A stretch of 64,000 bases of DNA from Promethearchaeota archaeon (GTDB lineage Archaea > Asgardarchaeota > Lokiarchaeia > Sigyniarchaeales > SOKP01): the NCBI GenBank assembly GCA_008080735.1, contig SHMW01000006.1, positions 28,588 through 92,587 on the forward strand. Reading direction: 5' to 3'. Both the position numbers and the translations under genes were made by a program. Shown here piece by piece: positions 13,583 through 40,005 of this stretch; position 1 is the first letter of the stretch, and each line of letters opens with the position of its first letter. The notes under the pieces are model-generated. The model did not search any database. It saw only the letters and a list, made by a program, of their open reading frames with translations, and was not told the DNA's origin.

Positions 13583-14692
13583 ATGCGAAAATTAAATATC
13601 TGCCTTATCTCCTTTAAAATACCACCTGATTCTATGGATGGAACTGCTAAATTTTTTAGAGGTATTTATGAGTATTTGAAAAAACAAGGACATAATATTA
13701 CCTTACTCACTGGAAAATGGAATTATAAATTACAAGATCCAGATATAAAACAAATCGATATTATACCAAGACGATTTTTTTGGATCTTTCCATTCTATAT
13801 TGGTGTGATAAAATATCTAAGATCTCACAAATTCGATATTATTCATGGAAATAATCCAAAAGGGGCACTTCCTATCATACTAGCAAATAAAAAACAATTT
13901 GGATCCACAATCCATGATCTAGGATTTTTTACTCGAATCCCATTTGAGAAGATTTTAATTAGATTTATTGCAAAAACATCAAGATTTATAACTACATGTT
14001 CAACTCAAATTAAGAAAGATTTGGTGAAAGAATTCCCAGATCTAAGCCCAAATAAGATCTTTAATCTTTATTCAGCAATAGAAGAGAAATTTATGCCCTT
14101 TCCCAAAAAAGCGAGAAAACTTAAAGAAAAGATGGGACTGGAAGGTCCTACCATATTATATATTGGTCGTGTTTCCTATTACAAAGGCGTAGATGATATT
14201 ATTAGAGCTTACTATCTCGCCAAGAAAAAGATTCCGGAATTGAATCTGATTATCGGAGGTCTTCCAGATTTCAGGACTCAAAATCAATATGAATCATGGA
14301 AACAAAAATATAAGGATATATCATTCGTAGGTTATATCCCAGATGATCAAATTCCAATCTACTATAGTTTAGGAGAAATCTTCATAACATATTCATATGC
14401 ATTTGAAGGATTTGGATTAACCCCGATAGAAGCAATCGCATGCGGAACTCCCGTGATATGTTCATCGATTCCTGTATTCAAGGAAGTACTGCAAGATAAT
14501 GCTATTTTTGTGAAACCCAGAAGCCCCAAATCACTTGCAGACGCCATAGTAGATTTAATAACCAATGATAAGAAAAGAGAAAACTTAATTGAAAAAGCTC
14601 GGCGCTTCATCCAACGCTATACTTGGCAAGAAGTTGGAGAAAAATTAGAAAAAGTCTATCAATTATTTCTAAAAATGAAAGAATCGGATTAA
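13583..14692 (+). CDS. Glycosyltransferase family 4 (GT-B)
   Basis: YIGRVSYYKG and EGFGLTPIEAIACGTPVI motifs. Confidence 0.92.
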   Translation: MRKLNICLISFKIPPDSMDGTAKFFRGIYEYLKKQGHNITLLTGKWNYKLQDPDIKQIDIIPRRFFWIFPFYIGVIKYLRSHKFDIIHGNNPKGALPIILANKKQFGSTIHDLGFFTRIPFEKILIRFIAKTSRFITTCSTQIKKDLVKEFPDLSPNKIFNLYSAIEEKFMPFPKKARKLKEKMGLEGPTILYIGRVSYYKGVDDIIRAYYLAKKKIPELNLIIGGLPDFRTQNQYESWKQKYKDISFVGYIPDDQIPIYYSLGEIFITYSYAFEGFGLTPIEAIACGTPVICSSIPVFKEVLQDNAIFVKPRSPKSLADAIVDLITNDKKRENLIEKARRFIQRYTWQEVGEKLEKVYQLFLKMKESD

Positions 14693-14724
14693 AGTGAGTT
14701 TCTACTTTAAAAAAGCGATTTTTT

Positions 14725-15855
14725 TTAATGCAACCATCTTGTTTGCCCGAGAGTGATTAACCGATATCTCAATACTCTGTCATAATCATTCCAAAAACAG
14801 CTATAACATTCTGGGATATTTTCGCGTGAATCGATGAGCAACGATCTAAATTCTCTGTATTTTTTTCCGTTCCAGATTTCATGAAATGAATTTTTATAAA
14901 TGTTTCCCATAACATATTTTTCGCTAGTCAGATAACAGCATGGTAAAACCTTTCCAGTTGCGGTGATATATGTGGAGATCCATGGAGTGAGACATGGGGT
15001 TTCGTTTTTTAAAGTTTTCCTATTTAATAACTCTATTAATTTTTCACGCCAATTGATAAAAAATACTTCTTTCTGTGTTTCCCTTATAGAATCAATATCT
15101 TTACTTATTTTAGCGATTGCTTTTTTTAGTTTTTTATCTGTTGGAACAATTCCTGAATCCACTCCAAAATCAAAGACGGGCTCTAACCTAAATGAATCAA
15201 GTAATTTCCATTTTTTAAGATAATTAAACATTGGTTCATATTCTTCGAGATTTTTAGATTGAAGACAGCAAAGAATTCGAATAATCGTCTTTTTTCTGTT
15301 AATTTTTGCAAGTAACTTCTCAAAATTTTCAAGGCAACGATGAAATGTTGAACTCATGGTTATTTCTTCAAACGACAGGGGATTTGTGCCGTGTAAAGAA
15401 AAAGTTAATATAGTAGGGGGACTTTCGACCAATTTTTTGATATTAATATCATTCATTAACGACATGTTGGTCGGCATGGAGGTAGTTATTTTCTTGCGAT
15501 TACATAATTCCAAGAATTTATAGATTTCCGTGTTCAATAATGGCTCTCCCAGTCCATTTAAAGTAAGATATAAAGGGTTTATATTCTCTACCAACCTTTT
15601 AAATGTTTTGTAGGAAATTATATTATTTAAAGTCCTAATCTTTTGGAGATTATGTCTGTCACACATAATACAATCGAAATTGCATCTGTCTGTAATTTCA
15701 ATTTGAAGCCTGATGGGCCCGTCTTTTGAAGCGAGAGGCGCTCCTAATATTGAATAAAATAGAGCACTGAATGCTTTTTTAATTTTAAATAAGGAGGTGA
15801 ACTGGTTATTTCCAAAAATTAGCAATAAATCCTGAAGCCGTCGTTTTAGTTCCAT
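14725..15855 (-). CDS. Radical SAM protein with SPASM/twitch domain
   Basis: CNFDCIMC, GLGEP, and C-terminal CLTPW...GKVLPCC...GNI...CYSC. Confidence 0.92.
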   Translation of the reverse strand: MELKRRLQDLLLIFGNNQFTSLFKIKKAFSALFYSILGAPLASKDGPIRLQIEITDRCNFDCIMCDRHNLQKIRTLNNIISYKTFKRLVENINPLYLTLNGLGEPLLNTEIYKFLELCNRKKITTSMPTNMSLMNDINIKKLVESPPTILTFSLHGTNPLSFEEITMSSTFHRCLENFEKLLAKINRKKTIIRILCCLQSKNLEEYEPMFNYLKKWKLLDSFRLEPVFDFGVDSGIVPTDKKLKKAIAKISKDIDSIRETQKEVFFINWREKLIELLNRKTLKNETPCLTPWISTYITATGKVLPCCYLTSEKYVMGNIYKNSFHEIWNGKKYREFRSLLIDSRENIPECYSCFWNDYDRVLRYRLITLGQTRWLH

Positions 15856-15955
15856 ATGTCTTTTCTTCCTTATTAAACCGTGGTCTTATAAATATTAAGT
15901 CTTAATCTTCTCAGAAGCGTAATAAAAATATAAAGATTAAGTTTTAAAATCTTCT

Positions 15956-16165
15956 TTAAGCAGGAGAGAATAGCCAAGTAAAAACACCGAGATGGGCTAA
16001 TATAACCACTGCTATAAGGGCTACGGCAGAGATCGCAGTTGCTATAGGACTAATTTTAATACCTATAGAAGAGTCTTCAAAAAATCTCATTAACCCCGCT
16101 CCACCCATAGGCATAGGTGCTGATCCCGATCTTCTTTTCTTTCTCCTTGATTGGCGTTTTGACAT
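15956..16165 (-). CDS. secG: Protein translocase subunit Sec61beta
   Basis: Basic N-terminus, GAGLMRFFED...IKISP, single C-terminal TM. Confidence 0.92.
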   Translation of the reverse strand: MSKRQSRRKKRRSGSAPMPMGGAGLMRFFEDSSIGIKISPIATAISAVALIAVVILAHLGVFTWLFSPA

Positions 16166-16319
16166 CGATTATTTAAAGGTTTTTAATTGTATAAAAAATA
16201 TAATCATCTAAAACTAAAAAACTATTTCTCTCCAATAAAGATGATTCACTTTACCTTAAAAAAGATATTTTAGGCAAAATGTCTTTTATTTTACTAAAAC
16301 AAAGCTTCTTTATACTTCA

Positions 16320-16616
16320 ATGAAAATTAAAGAATTCCAAGATCTCATGCGGGAGCTATATTATCACCAAGATTCTAAGAGAGGTCTTAATAAAACTTTT
16401 TATTGGCTAATAGAAGAAGTAGGGGAACTTTCCAGCGCTCTGAAAGCGAAAGATTTAGATAAGAAGAATATTGGAGAAGAAATAGCAGATATTGTAGCAT
16501 GGATATGTTCACTAGCAAATTTATTGGATGTAGATATTCAATCCGCTATACTTCAGAAGTATCCAAAAAAATGCCCTAAATGTATGAAAAATCCTTGCGA
16601 ATGTGGAACAGAGTAA
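16320..16616 (+). CDS. MazG-like nucleotide pyrophosphohydrolase
   Basis: WLIEEVGEL...EEIADIVAW, with a C-terminal CPKC...PCEC tail. Confidence 0.88.
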   Translation: MKIKEFQDLMRELYYHQDSKRGLNKTFYWLIEEVGELSSALKAKDLDKKNIGEEIADIVAWICSLANLLDVDIQSAILQKYPKKCPKCMKNPCECGTE

Positions 16617-16721
16617 TAAAAAATCGACTGATTATATCAGATTTTTAAAGAAAATAAACCTTAATAAATTTCTAAAATTGATAATATTAATTTAAGTAGT
16701 TAATGAAGAAAGGAAAAATTA

Positions 16722-18566
16722 GTGCCAATGCCGAATAAAAAGAAGTTCTATGTGCTACTATCCATTTTTATCACAACTTTTATTCTAAGCTCTGTGATTC
16801 CAAGATTTTTGAATAAATCTTCTCCATTTTCCGTTTATAATGAACCACTACACTTATCTGGCAATTTAGAGGGGGCATCAGATATTACTATCGCCAATAT
16901 CAATCGAACGATTAGTATAAACGGATATGGTTTAGTCAATATTGAGGATAATCTTACAATTAGAAATGATTTTGAAAACCCCGTATCATCGATTTTTATG
17001 GGGATTCCTACAAATATCTTAGAAGATTTAATATACTATAAAGCAAAGGGAAGTGGGGGTAATACATTGTTAGCTGAGGATACTGGGTTATTAATGGACA
17101 CAGATAAAAATATGATAGAGATCTATTTCGATTCTCCTCTACTGCCCGGACAGAGAAAAACGATAATTTTTTCACAATCCTATAAGGATTTACTTAAATA
17201 TGAACCATCGGGGTCTCAACAGAAAATCTCTTATAGTGGACTTATTTATCCTTCTATACCGTATAAGGGACAAGGAAGCATAATTGCTGTTATAGAATTA
17301 CCTATTGGTGCTGGGAGTATTGAAGATGATTGGGGAACTACACAAGCTAATCATATCACTTTTTCCATAGAAGATTTGCCACAAACATATATAGAACCCT
17401 TTTTAGAAAATTTGGGTGATAATAGAACCATAGATGTTTCAATGGCACATTCTTCAATCACAAACTTAGAAATTCAAGAATCCACAAGACAAATAACAAT
17501 TTCGCCGTGGGGAACCATAAGAGTGGAGGAAGATATACGTATTAAAAATCTTGGTTCTATCTCGGTTCAGAGATTTAATCTTAGGATTCCTGATCCAGCA
17601 ATTAATGTAGAAACAAAAGATAATTTAGGAAATATTGAAGGAACCACGGTAACTGAGTTACCAAACAACCCAAAATCGAAACAGGTTAATTTAGATCTCT
17701 CAAATAATCGAGTAACAATGCAACCAAATTCAAGTTTCCAATTCACATTACGTTACCAGTTAAATTTAGGAATTTATCTAAATTTTGACTGGTTTAGACA
17801 ATCTGTCCAATTAGATGTGATAATGACGAATTTTGATTATTTAGTAAAAAATCAGCTAACCCAGATAAGAATTGAAGGCTCTCTAAATATAGATCAAATC
17901 TCTGATCTTCCAGATATATACGATGAGACTATTAATTCGCAAATTCTCATCTTTGAGTCAGATTATGTGAGTAATCTCGAAGAACGAGAAATTCTGCTCA
18001 CCTATACAATTGATATCTTTGAAATGTTGATGCGACCGATAATTCTTCTTTTAGTAATTGCAGGTGTTTGCTCAGCTCTTATTGTCATAATTAAGAAGAG
18101 AAAGGAATTAGGGATATTACCTAAGATAGAGAAAGAACAACTACCATTAAGGGAAATTAGAGAATTCTGTTCTCTTTATGAGCAGAAGAACGCACTAACA
18201 TTAGAAATTCGGCAAGCAGAAGAAGAATTAAAAAGACGTAAACTTACAAAGAAACAATATCGTAATCTTGTTGATAAAAATGAATCACGAATAAAACAGA
18301 TTGACGAGGAGATCAAGCCATTTAAGAAGGAATTAATGGAAGCAAGTCAAACTTTTGAAAATATCGTACAAAAGCTTGATGTCTTAGAAGCTGAACGTCA
18401 AACTGTTGAAGATGGGTTGAAATTACTTGATTCGAGATATCGTAAAGGTAAATTGCCTTCTCGATCTGCTTATGTAAAACTAACAAATGATTTTCTCAAA
18501 AGGAGAAAAAAGATCGATAGAACGATAAGTCGCTTCATTCAGCAATTACGTTCATATTTACTTTAA
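16722..18566 (+). CDS. Ribophorin I (OST1/RPN1)-like oligosaccharyltransferase subunit
   Basis: Signal/anchor, two repeated lumenal domains (RTISINGYGLVNIEDNL; RQITISPWGTIRVEEDI, resembling RPN1 RxIEVSHWGNIAVEE), one TM, helical cytosolic tail. Confidence 0.8.
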   Translation: MPMPNKKKFYVLLSIFITTFILSSVIPRFLNKSSPFSVYNEPLHLSGNLEGASDITIANINRTISINGYGLVNIEDNLTIRNDFENPVSSIFMGIPTNILEDLIYYKAKGSGGNTLLAEDTGLLMDTDKNMIEIYFDSPLLPGQRKTIIFSQSYKDLLKYEPSGSQQKISYSGLIYPSIPYKGQGSIIAVIELPIGAGSIEDDWGTTQANHITFSIEDLPQTYIEPFLENLGDNRTIDVSMAHSSITNLEIQESTRQITISPWGTIRVEEDIRIKNLGSISVQRFNLRIPDPAINVETKDNLGNIEGTTVTELPNNPKSKQVNLDLSNNRVTMQPNSSFQFTLRYQLNLGIYLNFDWFRQSVQLDVIMTNFDYLVKNQLTQIRIEGSLNIDQISDLPDIYDETINSQILIFESDYVSNLEEREILLTYTIDIFEMLMRPIILLLVIAGVCSALIVIIKKRKELGILPKIEKEQLPLREIREFCSLYEQKNALTLEIRQAEEELKRRKLTKKQYRNLVDKNESRIKQIDEEIKPFKKELMEASQTFENIVQKLDVLEAERQTVEDGLKLLDSRYRKGKLPSRSAYVKLTNDFLKRRKKIDRTISRFIQQLRSYLL

Positions 18567-18587
18567 TACTAATTGGTGGTTTTGATA

Positions 18588-19217
18588 ATGAAATTGTGGT
18601 TATTTGATATCTTGGCTTGTCCGATATGTAAGCATTTTCCACTAAAACTTTTTATCTTTTCCTATCAAACAGAAGAAGAGATATTTAGGTCTTATCTTAG
18701 TAATTATCAAAAAAGTGATAGTGTGAGTTTAAAGTCACAAGACACAATACAGATCGACTATGATAATGAACATCAAATTCTCATAAAAGATAATATCGTG
18801 ATTGAGCCAAAACCACTTGTAGACTATATGGATGCTCTACTCTCTAGTATTAAAGAATTAAATCATATTGAAGATCGCAGCCCTTATGAGACAAGTAAAA
18901 AATGCTTAAATCTTGCAAAAGAATCCATATATAATGATTTGAAGAACCTTTCGCAAAATCTTAATCTGGACGGGTTTCAGGAGCGATTGGCTGAGCTTGA
19001 ATTTCTAAATAAATTGAAAGTTGATGCGGAAATCGATTCTGGACTTCTTTTATGTGAATCGTGTAAACGGTGGTATCCAATTATTGAAACAATTCCTCGC
19101 ATGCTTCCCGATGAATATCGAGATAAAGAATCCGAGCTCCAATTCTTAGAAAGCAAAAAAAATTTATTAGATGAAAAATTTTTCACATTAGATTTAAAAC
19201 CATTTGCTCTCAAATGA
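18588..19217 (+). CDS. trm112: Trm112 family methyltransferase activator with a long insertion
   Basis: MKLWLFDILACPICK...GLLLCESCKRWYPIIETIPRML. ATG 18588 follows a GGTGG SD, so it is preferred over the track's TTG at 18573. Confidence 0.85.
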   Translation: MKLWLFDILACPICKHFPLKLFIFSYQTEEEIFRSYLSNYQKSDSVSLKSQDTIQIDYDNEHQILIKDNIVIEPKPLVDYMDALLSSIKELNHIEDRSPYETSKKCLNLAKESIYNDLKNLSQNLNLDGFQERLAELEFLNKLKVDAEIDSGLLLCESCKRWYPIIETIPRMLPDEYRDKESELQFLESKKNLLDEKFFTLDLKPFALK

Positions 19218-19270
19218 TTTTTTAAATTGTATTGAATTATAATATCATACAACAGCGTCTATAAAACCAT

Positions 19271-19372
19271 AGCCCGGTGGTGTAGAACGATATATGAAAT
19301 TATATCGTGCACAACGGCCAAGCATCCGGGGCTTTGAACCCTGTGACCACAGTTCGAATCTGTGCCGGGCTA
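19271..19372 (+). tRNA. tRNA-Gln(UUG) with a 29-nt intron at position 15/16 (19286-19314)
   Basis: Acceptor stem AGCCCGG/CCGGGCT with the A1-U72 pair typical of archaeal tRNA-Gln; anticodon arm CGGGG-CTTTGAA-CCCTG (TTG at 19334-19336); T arm CACAG-TTCGAAT-CTGTG. Removing 19286-19314 restores GTGGTGTAGCGGCCAAGCAT. Confidence 0.93.
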
Positions 19373-19616
19373 TAATTTCATTTTAAAAAGCTTACTAATT
19401 ATCTTTAGATTAAACAGTGATTTTAGCAATTTTAAAGGAAAAAGTTGCAATATGATCGGATTATCTTTTTTTGAAGAAATATACAATCTTTTCCAAATTT
19501 TAATTTTTTGAAAATATCTTCAACAACTCGCTTAATATAGTTCCCCTACGTACTATTCATGCTAAATTTTAATATGAGAAATAACTATTAAACTCAAAAG
19601 CACATATTATTATAAA

Positions 19617-20711
19617 ATGAGTCTTTCGGGAAGGAATATCTGGATTGATATTGAGCAACCAAAAGCAGCAATCATGTTTAATTCTCTTATAGAACAATTC
19701 CAAGAAGATGGTGTTAATTTACTAATTACTGCAAGAGATTACGATTCTACTTTTCAAATATTAGACGATCATGATGTTGACTATATCAAGGTGGGGAAAC
19801 ATGGTGGAGCGAGCTTAGAAGAGAAATTAAAGACTCATATAAAAAGATTAGAAGAGCTTTTTACTTATGTTGCTGAGTTTAATCCAGACTATCTAGTCAA
19901 CTTTATTTCTGTGGAAGCTATTAGAATTGCTTATGGACTTCAAATTCCTTCAATCGGGTTTAATGATGAGCCGAGAAATGAGCCCGTGTGTAAATTGATT
20001 TTTCCGTTTATAGACAAACTAATTACCCCCAAATGTATTCCCAAGGAATCCTATATAGAATTATATGCGGATCCTAAGAAAATTATTCGATACAATGGAA
20101 TCGATGAAATTGGATGGTTATCAAATTTCAAACCTGATCCATCAGTTTTAGAACACTATGATTTACAAATGGGAAACTACGTGATTATGCGAAGTGAACC
20201 CTCTGCGGCATGCTATTTTATAAACAAATTAAAGCCCGATGAGACGATGCTTAGTGAAATCTTTCCCCAAATATATAAAGAATTTCCCAACCATAAATAT
20301 TTTCTACTGGCACGAAACCGAAATCAAGAAGAATTTTTACGGAAAACTCTAAAGAAATATGAAGATAATCCCAATTTAATAATCACTCGTTATTTACCCA
20401 ATCTAGATGATTATTGTTTTTATAGTGGATTGGTTATTAGCGGGGGTGGAACTATTGTAAGGGAATCGAGTCTCTTGAGCGTGCCGAGTATAGAATTTTT
20501 CCCCGGTCCAACGGCACCGCAAGAAATGTTTTTAAAGAACAATGGATTTCCCTTGGAACATATAGAAGAATTAAATAGAATCATAGACAGATCAATCCAT
20601 GTACTTAATCAAGGATTCGATAATGACAGAATTAAGCATTTTAAAAAAAAAATTCAACAATTTGAAAATCCCGTGAAGATTTGCTATAATTATGTGCGGA
20701 TTCATATATAG
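19617..20711 (+). CDS. DUF354 family GT-B-like protein
   Basis: IWIDI...ITARDY...VGKHGG...SGGGTIVRES..L.VPSI pattern. Confidence 0.8.
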   Translation: MSLSGRNIWIDIEQPKAAIMFNSLIEQFQEDGVNLLITARDYDSTFQILDDHDVDYIKVGKHGGASLEEKLKTHIKRLEELFTYVAEFNPDYLVNFISVEAIRIAYGLQIPSIGFNDEPRNEPVCKLIFPFIDKLITPKCIPKESYIELYADPKKIIRYNGIDEIGWLSNFKPDPSVLEHYDLQMGNYVIMRSEPSAACYFINKLKPDETMLSEIFPQIYKEFPNHKYFLLARNRNQEEFLRKTLKKYEDNPNLIITRYLPNLDDYCFYSGLVISGGGTIVRESSLLSVPSIEFFPGPTAPQEMFLKNNGFPLEHIEELNRIIDRSIHVLNQGFDNDRIKHFKKKIQQFENPVKICYNYVRIHI

Positions 20712-20755
20712 AAACTATACAAAAATTAAATAAAAATTACTTAATACTCTTATAA

Positions 20756-22102
20756 ATGATATATCCAACTAATATACGATGGGATTTTTATAGCATCTTG
20801 TATCTAAGTATCGCAGGGATTATCGGCTTTGTTATAACATATTTGATTATGCCCTACATTATCAAATATATGAAGAAAAAAGGTTATGTTGGAACAGATA
20901 TCCACAAAAATACCCGTCCAGAAGTTGCCGAATCTGGTGGATTAGGAATGATGATCGGATTTATCTTCCCCTCCATTTTTCTGGCAATCATTTTTACCGA
21001 TTATAGAAATATCATCTTAATTGTGTTATTTACTGTCATTATTGCAGGGATTATTGGTTTTATTGATGATAGAGTCAGATTGAGGACCCGCTATAAATTA
21101 CTTTTAACCTTAACGATTGGATCTGCCGTGTTTTTGGCTAATTATCTTGGGCTCATCGCTATTCAGAATCCTGTACTGCCGATTCTGAGTCGTTTACGGC
21201 TTAATATGATTTATCCTATCTTGATCCCTTTGGTAGTAATTGTGTTTGCGAATACCGTAAATATGTTAGAGGGATACAACGGAGAGGGTTCTGGAACGTG
21301 TATTATTGCCATTGGATTTTTATTAGTATGCAGTTTTATCTGGAATACTATGGAAGGATTAATGTTCTCTATAATTTCTCTTTCCGTAATTATCCCTTTT
21401 TATCTCTTTAATAGATATCCTGCTAAAGTATTTCCCGGAGATGTTGGTACCTTATCGATGGGTGTTATGATAGCAAGCATCGCCCTCTTTGGTGGGCTAC
21501 TCGCTGCAGCTTTCTGTACGCTATTAACGCATATATTTAATAGCTTTTACTATATCTCCTCTGTGAGAGGGTTTTTTGAGAGTAAAGAAATTCATGAATT
21601 AAGAGATGATATTGTTTTACTTAAAGATGATAGGATTAAAGCATCTGAACAAAAAAGTGCTTTAATAACAGTGCCTCGGATGATATTAGCAAAAGGGCCC
21701 TTGTCAGAATCACAATTAGTGAAAAAAATTTACTTGATTTCCATTATTAGCGGATTTTTAGGTATATTGACCACACTATTAATGTGTTTGACTTTGGAGA
21801 AAATTAACATTTTTTGGGTTTTTATTTTTTCGCTGCCAAGTCTGGTGATTATTATATTGCTGATGTACTTTTTTCCGAGAATTAGAGATATTGCTATTCA
21901 AATGCTTATCCTATATTTTATTGGAATTATTATATTGTATTTAATTGATATTATAATTATCCCAATTCAAATTACTATTGATCTGTATTTTATTAAAATA
22001 CCTCTCAATATTGTAGTATCTCTTATTGCGGTCTTACCTGGACTTGGTGTGTGGTATATTTTAACAATAATTTATTTAAATAATCAACTAGAGTTAGAAT
22101 AA
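20756..22102 (+). CDS. aglH: UDP-GlcNAc:dolichyl-phosphate GlcNAc-1-phosphotransferase (AglH/ALG7, MraY-like family)
   Basis: GTDIHK...PEVAESGG, GFIDD, NTVNMLEGYNG and FNRYPAKVFPGDVG motifs. Confidence 0.88.
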   Translation: MIYPTNIRWDFYSILYLSIAGIIGFVITYLIMPYIIKYMKKKGYVGTDIHKNTRPEVAESGGLGMMIGFIFPSIFLAIIFTDYRNIILIVLFTVIIAGIIGFIDDRVRLRTRYKLLLTLTIGSAVFLANYLGLIAIQNPVLPILSRLRLNMIYPILIPLVVIVFANTVNMLEGYNGEGSGTCIIAIGFLLVCSFIWNTMEGLMFSIISLSVIIPFYLFNRYPAKVFPGDVGTLSMGVMIASIALFGGLLAAAFCTLLTHIFNSFYYISSVRGFFESKEIHELRDDIVLLKDDRIKASEQKSALITVPRMILAKGPLSESQLVKKIYLISIISGFLGILTTLLMCLTLEKINIFWVFIFSLPSLVIIILLMYFFPRIRDIAIQMLILYFIGIIILYLIDIIIIPIQITIDLYFIKIPLNIVVSLIAVLPGLGVWYILTIIYLNNQLELE

Positions 22103-27586: not shown

Positions 27587-28987
27587 TTAGATAACTTCTA
27601 AGGTTTCTTCGGGTATTTTTTTGCATTTTTCTTCCAAATCGATGCCCTTTTTAGCTAACCAATTTTTCCTTACGAAATAATAGATTATAGCAACTAGGTA
27701 TAAAATGGCCACAATTACGACTATATACCATTTAACTCCGATAATCGCTAAAATTGATAGCGAACTATAAGCAACGTTAAAAATCACCAATATCACGAGA
27801 TAAGGTCTCTTGATTTTGAATTTTGACTTTTCTAATAATTCCGGATACTTTTTTCCGAGAAGATATGGAATAAAGGCTAGAATTAGGGATGGGACAGAAA
27901 TAGTGAGAGCATTTAAATATTGAAGATCCTCATAACCAGGTTGAAATACCAGCAAGATAAGGGCGCTCAAACAGAAAAATGAAACAGACCAATGTGGCGT
28001 TCCAAACTTTTTATTCACATCCGAAAGAACGGAAGGAAGCATCCTATCTCTCGCTGCAGAAAAAAGATCTCGTGAATAAGCTAGAATAACCGCGTGGATT
28101 GTTGATGCGATGGCTATTAAAATTAGGATGTTTAGAAAGATTAAAAAGCCCCCCTGTATCCCTATTTGGGTAAAGACATTAATAATTGTTTTATTATCAC
28201 CGGTACTCAATTCTGTATAATTAAAAACGCCTGTAAAGACGAGGGATACCAAGATATAAAGAATTAACACCATTATAAGACTAATGAATATACCCAAAGG
28301 GATATTCCGTTTCGGATTTTTTACTTCTCCTCCTATTTCAATAATCGCTGTAAAACCCGCATAACTAAAACTCAATATGACCGCACCAAGAAAAATACCA
28401 ACAAAACCCGTCGGAAAAAGACCTTGATCACCAATCCCTGCAAGATTCTCAAATGAAACGTTAGGTAATCCGAATATTATAAACAACACCAATATAAGAA
28501 AATCTCCAAAAATGGCCAGAACTATTTGTACCCATCCTGCAATTTTAACTCCGAGTATATTTATCGCATAGAATATTAGAAGGATGATAATTGCCGCGAT
28601 ATATGTGATCCCGGGAAAAAAATCTTCCAAATAGATTCCAAATCCCATGGATATAAACGCTAATGATCCGATGATATGAATCATTAAGGAGGTCAGAACC
28701 AGAAATCCGATGAATGGACTTAATAGACGGGAGGTATATACCCATGCTCCTCCGCTTACGGGAAAGGCAGAAACAATGTAATAAATGATTATTGCGCTCA
28801 CCACGTTTGGAATCCCAGCTATTATAAAAGCTAACCACAATGCGGGTCCCGTTTCTGCGGCAGCTGTTCCCGTCTGTAGCAAAATACCCGCCCCAACAAT
28901 ATATCCGAATAGAAAAAAGACTACTGAACTTAATCCTAGTTCTCTCCGTAATTTTCCTTGTTCTTTTTCTTCGCGTTTTTCTACCAT
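27587..28987 (-). CDS. APC-family amino acid permease
   Basis: LRRELG, IVGAGI, FSYAGF, GGEVKNPKRNIP and FGTP motifs; about 12 TM. Confidence 0.92.
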   Translation of the reverse strand: MVEKREEKEQGKLRRELGLSSVVFFLFGYIVGAGILLQTGTAAAETGPALWLAFIIAGIPNVVSAIIIYYIVSAFPVSGGAWVYTSRLLSPFIGFLVLTSLMIHIIGSLAFISMGFGIYLEDFFPGITYIAAIIILLIFYAINILGVKIAGWVQIVLAIFGDFLILVLFIIFGLPNVSFENLAGIGDQGLFPTGFVGIFLGAVILSFSYAGFTAIIEIGGEVKNPKRNIPLGIFISLIMVLILYILVSLVFTGVFNYTELSTGDNKTIINVFTQIGIQGGFLIFLNILILIAIASTIHAVILAYSRDLFSAARDRMLPSVLSDVNKKFGTPHWSVSFFCLSALILLVFQPGYEDLQYLNALTISVPSLILAFIPYLLGKKYPELLEKSKFKIKRPYLVILVIFNVAYSSLSILAIIGVKWYIVVIVAILYLVAIIYYFVRKNWLAKKGIDLEEKCKKIPEETLEVI

Positions 28988-39453: not shown

Positions 39454-40005
39454 TTAGTAATATCTAATCAAATTCTGCAAAAACTCTCGAATCGCTTGAG
39501 TTTTTATCCCTAGCATGATCTGAAGCGTGACAAAGGAGACAAGAATTAAAATAAATCCAAGAGCCAAGATTTTAATCGCAGTATTTCTGTCATATACATA
39601 TTTTGAGGCTTGATAGAGAAGCAGATACCCTAAGCTCGAGAGAAAAATAACGATACTCGCGATGATACCTTCAATAATGAATTGGTAACTGATGTTAGGA
39701 TACAGAAAGATAGGCTCTCCGTCAGCATTTGCCCCAACCGCGGGGGGTTCCCTATAGATTATATACAGAATTCCTGTTTGGAGGACAAATAAGACGATAA
39801 AGATTAGAATCAATCCAAGATTTTTCGAAGGACTAGGCAGATCGATAGCTCGACGCGCTTTCAAGCTGGGAAACTTAATTTTTGGTTTTCGAAGCGATTC
39901 ACCAAATATCCACGGGGTTTTCGACTTCATTTTTTCGAGTACAGTTTCTGAGCCGCTAACTTCAGATTTTTTTCTCTTTTTGCTAGACTGCGATTTATTA
40001 CTCAT
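39454..40005 (-). CDS. DC2/OSTC-like (OST3/OST6 family) oligosaccharyltransferase subunit
   Basis: TGILYIIYREPPAVG...QFIIEGIIAS...LGY, 3 TM, no thioredoxin domain. Confidence 0.8.
   Translation of the reverse strand: MSNKSQSSKKRKKSEVSGSETVLEKMKSKTPWIFGESLRKPKIKFPSLKARRAIDLPSPSKNLGLILIFIVLFVLQTGILYIIYREPPAVGANADGEPIFLYPNISYQFIIEGIIASIVIFLSSLGYLLLYQASKYVYDRNTAIKILALGFILILVSFVTLQIMLGIKTQAIREFLQNLIRYY

Follow-up and report, generated by a model that had tools for sequence, protein, structure and literature searches.

The window analyzed here is a 64,000-nucleotide stretch of DNA from a Promethearchaeota archaeon (positions 28,588 to 92,587 of contig SHMW01000006.1, assembly GCA_008080735.1). It carries a gene for a ribophorin I/OST1 protein (hereafter RPN1) in the company of genes linked to protein translocation and glycosylation. 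The elements of the gene, in order along the forward strand, are:

16722..18566, + strand: ribophorin I/OST1 gene, 614 aa (open reading frame list and translation)
16722..16826, + strand: N-terminal helix (residues 6-28) acting as signal peptide or anchor, then a linker of low confidence (AF2 model)
16827..18014, + strand: extracytoplasmic all-beta region, the counterpart of the RPN1 luminal domains (AF2 strands within 55-430; alignment to human RPN1 89-457; Foldseek matches)
18015..18092, + strand: single transmembrane (TM) helix with a hydrophobic core at residues 436-457 (sequence and AF2 model, in which the helix spans 432-462)
18147..18560, + strand: cytosolic basic four-helix bundle, residues 476-613
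18234..18260, + strand: turn motif of hairpin 1, RRKLTKKQY, residues 505-513, between helices H1 and H2 (consensus R-G/K-K-I-x-K-K/R-x-Y)
18444..18473, + strand: turn motif of hairpin 2, KGKLPSRSAY, residues 575-584, between helices H3 and H4 (consensus over 574-584, R-x-G-K-I/L-(P)-S-K-x-A-Y)

The other genes of the window that enter the argument are:

15956..16165, - strand: Sec61beta, divergent and 556 bp upstream of RPN1 (Pfam PF03911, E=4.8e-11)
16320..16616, + strand: MazG-like gene between Sec61beta and RPN1 (Pfam PF03819, E=1.4e-10)
18573..19217, + strand: Trm112-like gene, starting 7 bp past the RPN1 stop codon (Pfam PF03966, E=1e-10)
19617..22102, + strand: DUF354 gene (PF04007, E=5.3e-42) and gene for a GT4 polyprenyl-phosphate HexNAc-1-P transferase of the AglH/ALG7 type (PF00953, E=2.2e-30)
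39454..40005, - strand: OSTC/DC2-like small OST subunit, a membrane protein of 183 aa (Pfam OST3_OST6; phmmer against human OSTC)

The RPN1 gene can be read from a GTG at 16722 or, equally plausibly, from an ATG two codons further on at 16728. Its identification as a ribophorin I homolog, first made in an initial annotation from the nucleotide sequence, is borne out by profile and structure searches alike. The Pfam model PF04597 (Ribophorin_I) matches the protein with 55.6 bits against a curated cutoff of 25 (E=6.3e-15) and also finds it in a whole-genome scan; Sulfolobus acidocaldarius, one of the named control genomes, gave no PF04597 match. A profile built from 45 full-length Asgard homologs aligns to the luminal domains and the TM helix of human RPN1 with E=6.1e-9, and to luminal residues only of yeast Ost1 with E=0.049. 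Among PDB structures, the full-length AF2 model (45 homologs in the alignment, pLDDT 84.3) is best matched by the human RPN1 chain 8b6l_O of the Sec61-TRAP-OST-A translocon (Foldseek E=1.6e-32, 606 columns); human OST-A and OST-B chains come next and yeast Ost1 after them, the top matches spanning E=1.6e-32 to 1e-20. The gene is present in a single copy in the source genome (4.1 Mb, 93% complete), and STT3 is encoded on another contig of that genome (C9) as a frame of 1199 aa. More than 160 full-length homologs of about 600-625 aa were collected, and those with a named source come from Promethearchaeota, Lokiarchaeota and other Asgard lineages.

The AF2 model and the Foldseek matches together give the protein a type I topology: a signal sequence with a hydrophobic helix at residues 6-28, extracytoplasmic beta-sandwich domains and one TM helix. 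A signal peptide has been predicted for the orthologous protein of strain MK-D1 by Carilo et al. (PMC11417166). Beyond the membrane, a short flexible linker separates the TM helix from the helices of a 157-residue cytosolic tail, namely H1 (476-504), H2 (510-541), H3 (543-574) and H4 (581-613), and the same four helices return when the tail is modeled on its own (pLDDT 82.5). Thus, the roughly 150 helical residues that had been noted after the TM segment form, in both models, an up-down four-helix bundle directly C-terminal to the TM helix. It is strongly basic, with a net charge of +11 and a pI of 9.8.

Conservation peaks in the tail, where column identity across the 45 sequences averages 0.78, compared with 0.63 for the TM helix and 0.58 for the luminal part, and strong purifying selection acts on the gene. 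Tail length is almost invariant (160 residues in 43 of the 45 sequences), and the family medians for charge and pI are +8 and 9.6. When 1.8 billion cluster representatives were searched exhaustively, 264 clusters proved to contain the tail domain; of the 128 representative proteins with near-full matches, 126 have it at their extreme C-terminus, and Ribophorin_I scores above the Pfam cutoff in seven of ten distant tail proteins that were checked. Within the phylum of the window, the domain was found in 291 of 301 sampled genomes, in 68 of 70 genera, and in every one of the 90 genomes with a completeness of 90% or more and a contamination of no more than 5%.

Many non-Lokiarchaeial genomes contain between 2 and 7 matches to the tail profile, suggesting paralogs that share the cytosolic bundle, and the source genome encodes one clear copy. 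A separate elaboration is seen in one large Asgard family, represented by the 975-aa protein P0265 and by the frames of about 985 aa of family f9 in the phylum scan. In these, a ribophorin I homolog bears an N-terminal extension of about 430 residues comprising an FKBP-type prolyl isomerase domain and an Ig-like domain, and hhalign pairs residues 432-970 of P0265 with the whole of RPN1, tail included (probability 99.6%). Such an extension would place a folding catalyst on an OST subunit.

Among experimentally characterized proteins, the tail is closest to the cytoplasmic domain of MK-D1 OST1 (Candidatus Prometheoarchaeum syntrophicum; PDB entry 8WHN), whose crystal structure was described in 2024 by Carilo, Senju, Yokoyama and Robinson in J Biol Chem (PMC11417166). 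The window tail retrieves it with E=1.3e-32 as a single phmmer query, at about 41% identity, and the family profile does so with E=1.1e-51. The window bundle is an ortholog of the MK-D1 OST1 cytoplasmic domain, and it is next to certain that the gene as a whole is an OST1 ortholog bearing an 8WHN-type bundle. The two differ in the kind of knowledge available for them, the MK-D1 domain having been crystallized and used in ribosome pull-downs, whereas the window tail is known from its sequence and model.

The relationship to the human tail is more distant. Two tail profiles were used, A2 from 45 Lokiarchaeial and A3 from 91 diverse sequences. In a search of all PDB sequences both recovered 8WHN, the remaining matches being weak or to coiled-coil proteins (tropomyosin, Get1, keratin), and neither reached the human RPN1 tail at E<=10. 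At the level of structure, the direct Foldseek comparison of the tail model with human RPN1, a check that the initial annotation had proposed, returned a weak match (E=0.6, TMq 0.54, rmsd 8.1 Å), and superposition of the bundles on the human one is generally poor, with rmsd values of 6.2-8.1 Å. A likeness to a human GKLKKDTY segment had also been put forward there: the sequence alignment shows GKL at positions 575-577 of human RPN1, and the remaining letters of the motif are presumably as given. The human protein, a component of OST-A seen in the Sec61-TRAP-OST translocon (PDB 6S7O, 8B6L), thus has a tail without detectable sequence similarity to the Asgard one, and Carilo et al. describe slightly different helix angles in the human and MK-D1 bundles (PMC11417166). 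The window bundle nevertheless corresponds to the human bundle in position and in topology.

Among structures outside the OST, the nearest look-alikes of the tail are generic bundles and hairpins of the ESCRT or CdvA type. One of the four-helix bundles resembling it, that of S. pombe Rex1BD (PDB 8J0H), is a soluble domain from an unrelated context with 13% identity, a warning that the four-helix fold alone is not diagnostic. Yeast Ost1p (PDB 6C26, 6EZN) presents the converse situation: its luminal domains and TM helix are homologous (Foldseek E=1e-21 to 4e-24), but at 476 aa it has no cytosolic bundle, as the initial annotation had stated and as our alignment over luminal residues agrees. The absence of the bundle in yeast has been reported previously, along with the lack of direct coupling of the yeast OST to the translocon (PMC6761772).

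These observations bear on whether the archaeal and metazoan tails share a common origin. Four-helix bundles evolve easily, and the undetectable sequence similarity, the poor superposition and the missing yeast tail would all fit a scenario in which Asgard archaea and metazoans added tails independently to a ribophorin I core, the ancestral OST1 having resembled tail-less yeast Ost1. We regard this scenario as very improbable, given that both tails follow the TM helix, are about 150 residues long, basic and of up-down topology, that both carry a GKL...Y turn in the H3-H4 loop (the human GKL being seen in the alignment and the rest of the human turn presumably following it), and that the full-length model and human RPN1 can be aligned over the 606 columns noted above. 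Moreover, the phylum-wide presence of the tail in Asgard archaea makes its loss in fungi the more parsimonious account. Because the tails occupy the same position in a homologous protein and agree in size, topology, basic character and the G-K-L...Y turn between H3 and H4, we infer that they are very likely homologous rather than convergent.

The turn motifs further suggest how the bundle itself may have been built. RRKLTKKQY and KGKLPSRSAY occupy equivalent places in the two hairpins, and Y573, just N-terminal of the latter, is shared by at least 90% of family members. The initial annotation had read the two motifs as an internal repeat. In the window protein alone no repeat is detectable: BLASTP of one half of its tail against the other gave no alignment, and hhalign of the halves of the Lokiarchaeial profile scored a non-significant 11.7-11.9, the signal in the lineage of the window being weak (11.7-15.9). 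It emerges with diverse sequences, and at the family level the repeat clearly exceeds its controls. With A3, the H1-H2 half aligns in register to the H3-H4 half over 53 columns with a score of 42.8 and an hhalign probability of 96%, as against 14.5-25.7 for reversed-profile controls, a maximum of 14.6 in 100 column shuffles, and 100 heptad-block shuffles that average 16.0 (sd 4.5) and peak at 29.1. The signal was replicated in the same register in two disjoint subsets of the sequences (36.3 and 35.8). Single-helix comparisons follow the order expected of two like hairpins, with H2~H4 at 24.9 and H1~H3 at 14.9, the four cross pairs scoring 9.7-11.9; hence, in the family as a whole the hairpins resemble each other, through H1~H3 plus H2~H4, beyond the controls.

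With a family score well above the shuffle maximum (42.8 versus 29.1), the earlier suggestion that the bundle originated by duplication of a helical hairpin gains support. Two basic hairpins of equal length could also have converged on the same pattern, and the duplication signal is weak in the lineage of the window; still, the repeat pattern of the family is the one expected of a tandem hairpin duplication, which we consider fairly likely. The bundle, then, probably arose by tandem duplication of one hairpin with an R-G-K-[IL]-x-[KS]-[KR]-x-x-Y turn, a possibility that Carilo et al. (2024; PMC11417166) do not mention. The basic turn motifs of the duplicated hairpin are obvious targets for mutagenesis.

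A further kinship was considered for H3-turn-H4 (residues 552-614; 18375-18563), which weakly matches every repeat of designed pentatricopeptide proteins with the pattern L..L......G..P....Y..L. These hits exist only as sums, each repeat having an i-Evalue >200, and the PPR relationship was rejected as probably a generic helix-turn-helix resemblance.

As to function, the mammalian RPN1 bundle contacts eL28 and the rRNA helices H25 and H19/20 (PMC6761772), in agreement with the large-subunit contact cited in the initial annotation. From this contact the annotation had reasoned that ribosome-coupled OST may predate eukaryotes, a conclusion that Carilo et al. (2024; PMC11417166) have published; the idea of a ribosome-binding Asgard tail is thus correct but was already in print. 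In that study, His-tagged C-terminal domains of both MK-D1 and human proteins pulled down human ribosomes from lysate and from semi-pure and pure preparations, and the MK-D1 N-terminal domain did not (PMC11417166). A search of the source genome for eL28 (PF01778) gave no match, and as the control genomes were likewise silent it is uninformative.

The mechanism that we propose runs as follows. OST1 is a type I protein with a signal sequence, two beta-sandwich domains outside the cell, a TM helix and a basic cytosolic four-helix bundle. The bundle would dock on the large ribosomal subunit beside the Sec61 channel, mainly by way of conserved basic surfaces that contact rRNA, and docking may in turn position the STT3-containing OST to scan nascent chains co-translationally, as in mammalian OST-A. 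That the domain docks on the organism's own ribosomes, thereby coupling glycosylation to translocation, appears likely, the one direct line of support being a pull-down in which a very basic domain was presented with heterologous ribosomes.

A domain of this charge and pI, assayed with human rather than archaeal ribosomes (PMC11417166), might bind by non-specific electrostatic attraction to rRNA, and the tail would then have another role, such as OST oligomerization, binding of the SRP receptor or a chaperone, or service as a membrane-proximal scaffold. The generic bundles and ESCRT or CdvA-type hairpins among its closest non-OST look-alikes, and the coiled-coil proteins that dominate its weak sequence matches, are in keeping with such a role. 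Nonetheless, we hold it to be unlikely: the human RPN1 tail, in the same position of the same family, contacts the ribosome in solved translocon structures (PMC6761772), the MK-D1 binding was seen with highly purified 80S ribosomes and was negative for the N-terminal control (PMC11417166), and a tail conserved almost universally across the phylum points to a core function. Taking ribosome docking together with the identity of the gene, we place good confidence in the overall account of the window protein as the OST1/ribophorin I subunit of a Lokiarchaeia-type Asgard OST that would contain STT3.

The gene neighborhood provides a second link to the translocon. Sec61beta, which had been placed about 550 bp from the gene, lies 556 bp upstream, and the synteny was followed in four further loci: three Lokiarchaeial homologs with 43-44% identity (L001-L003, two of which encode the same protein) and one distant homolog with 26% tail identity (L004). 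In each of L001-L003, Sec61beta is directly upstream and divergent, with MazG, DUF354 and GT1-family glycosyltransferase genes beyond it, and a Trm112-like (Trm112p) gene is immediately downstream of RPN1. In two of the loci the sequence reaches far enough to show the AglH/ALG7-type GT4 transferase next, L001 and L002 having both DUF354 and GT4. The window has the same gene set with local rearrangement, MazG being located between Sec61beta and RPN1, and DUF354 downstream. The Sec61beta neighborhood is absent from L004, so that the proposed synteny stands among the Lokiarchaeial loci and does not extend to the distant homolog. Thus, the Sec61beta linkage is a conserved feature, at the level of the lineage, of a glycosylation/translocon cluster; it hints at co-regulation but provides no evidence of physical contact.

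The broader neighborhood at 13583-22102 contains genes for a GT1-family transferase, a radical SAM/SPASM protein, Sec61beta, the MazG-like protein, RPN1, the Trm112-like protein, DUF354 and the AglH/ALG7-type GT4 transferase. Most of these recur near RPN1 on other Lokiarchaeial contigs, together with Roblocked/LC7 (Robl_LC7) and Peptidase_M24 genes. The Trm112-like match itself has a 40-position model stretched over residues 10-171, with the zinc-knuckle halves split by a long insert. ARAGORN detected no tRNA at 19150-19650, although an intron-containing tRNA may escape this program.

A further candidate OST component is encoded 21 kb downstream of the RPN1 gene. The 183-aa protein matches human OSTC (6s7o_H) with a phmmer E-value of 2.2e-11 over residues 12-142 of 149, its Pfam OST3_OST6 match is confined to the TM part, and it has a basic N-terminal extension. 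Judged from these sequence matches, it looks like a short subunit of the DC2 type and not a thioredoxin-bearing OST3/6. In mammals, DC2 is an OST-A subunit that contacts Sec61 (PMC6761772). A DC2-like identity of the Asgard 'OST3/6' gene is not given by Carilo et al. (2024; PMC11417166). The presence of a DC2/OSTC-like subunit bears on whether co-translational coupling of the OST-A kind is ancestral.

The window adds another ortholog rather than a discovery, the point about a pre-assembled translocon having been made and partly tested in 2024. Its increments are the conservation of the tail, which exceeds that of any other part of the protein, and its near-universality in the phylum, the duplication detected at the family level, the linkage in Lokiarchaeia to Sec61beta and dolichol-pathway genes, and the DC2/OSTC-like subunit. 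Combining them, we put forward, tentatively and at slightly less than even chances, that the bundle arose by hairpin duplication before the Asgard radiation and left the GKL...Y turn in the human H3-H4 loop as a remnant, and that the co-occurrence in Asgard archaea of the RPN1 bundle and an OSTC/DC2-like protein marks coupling of the OST-A type as ancestral, the yeast/OST-B mode being derived. The ribosome-docking tail contributes to the argument that eukaryotes received their ribosome-Sec61-OST translocon, for the most part already assembled, from an Asgard ancestor. If both OST-A determinants are indeed present in Asgard archaea, glycosylation coupled to the translocon would be the ancestral condition, and the uncoupled mode of yeast and OST-B would be a derived one.
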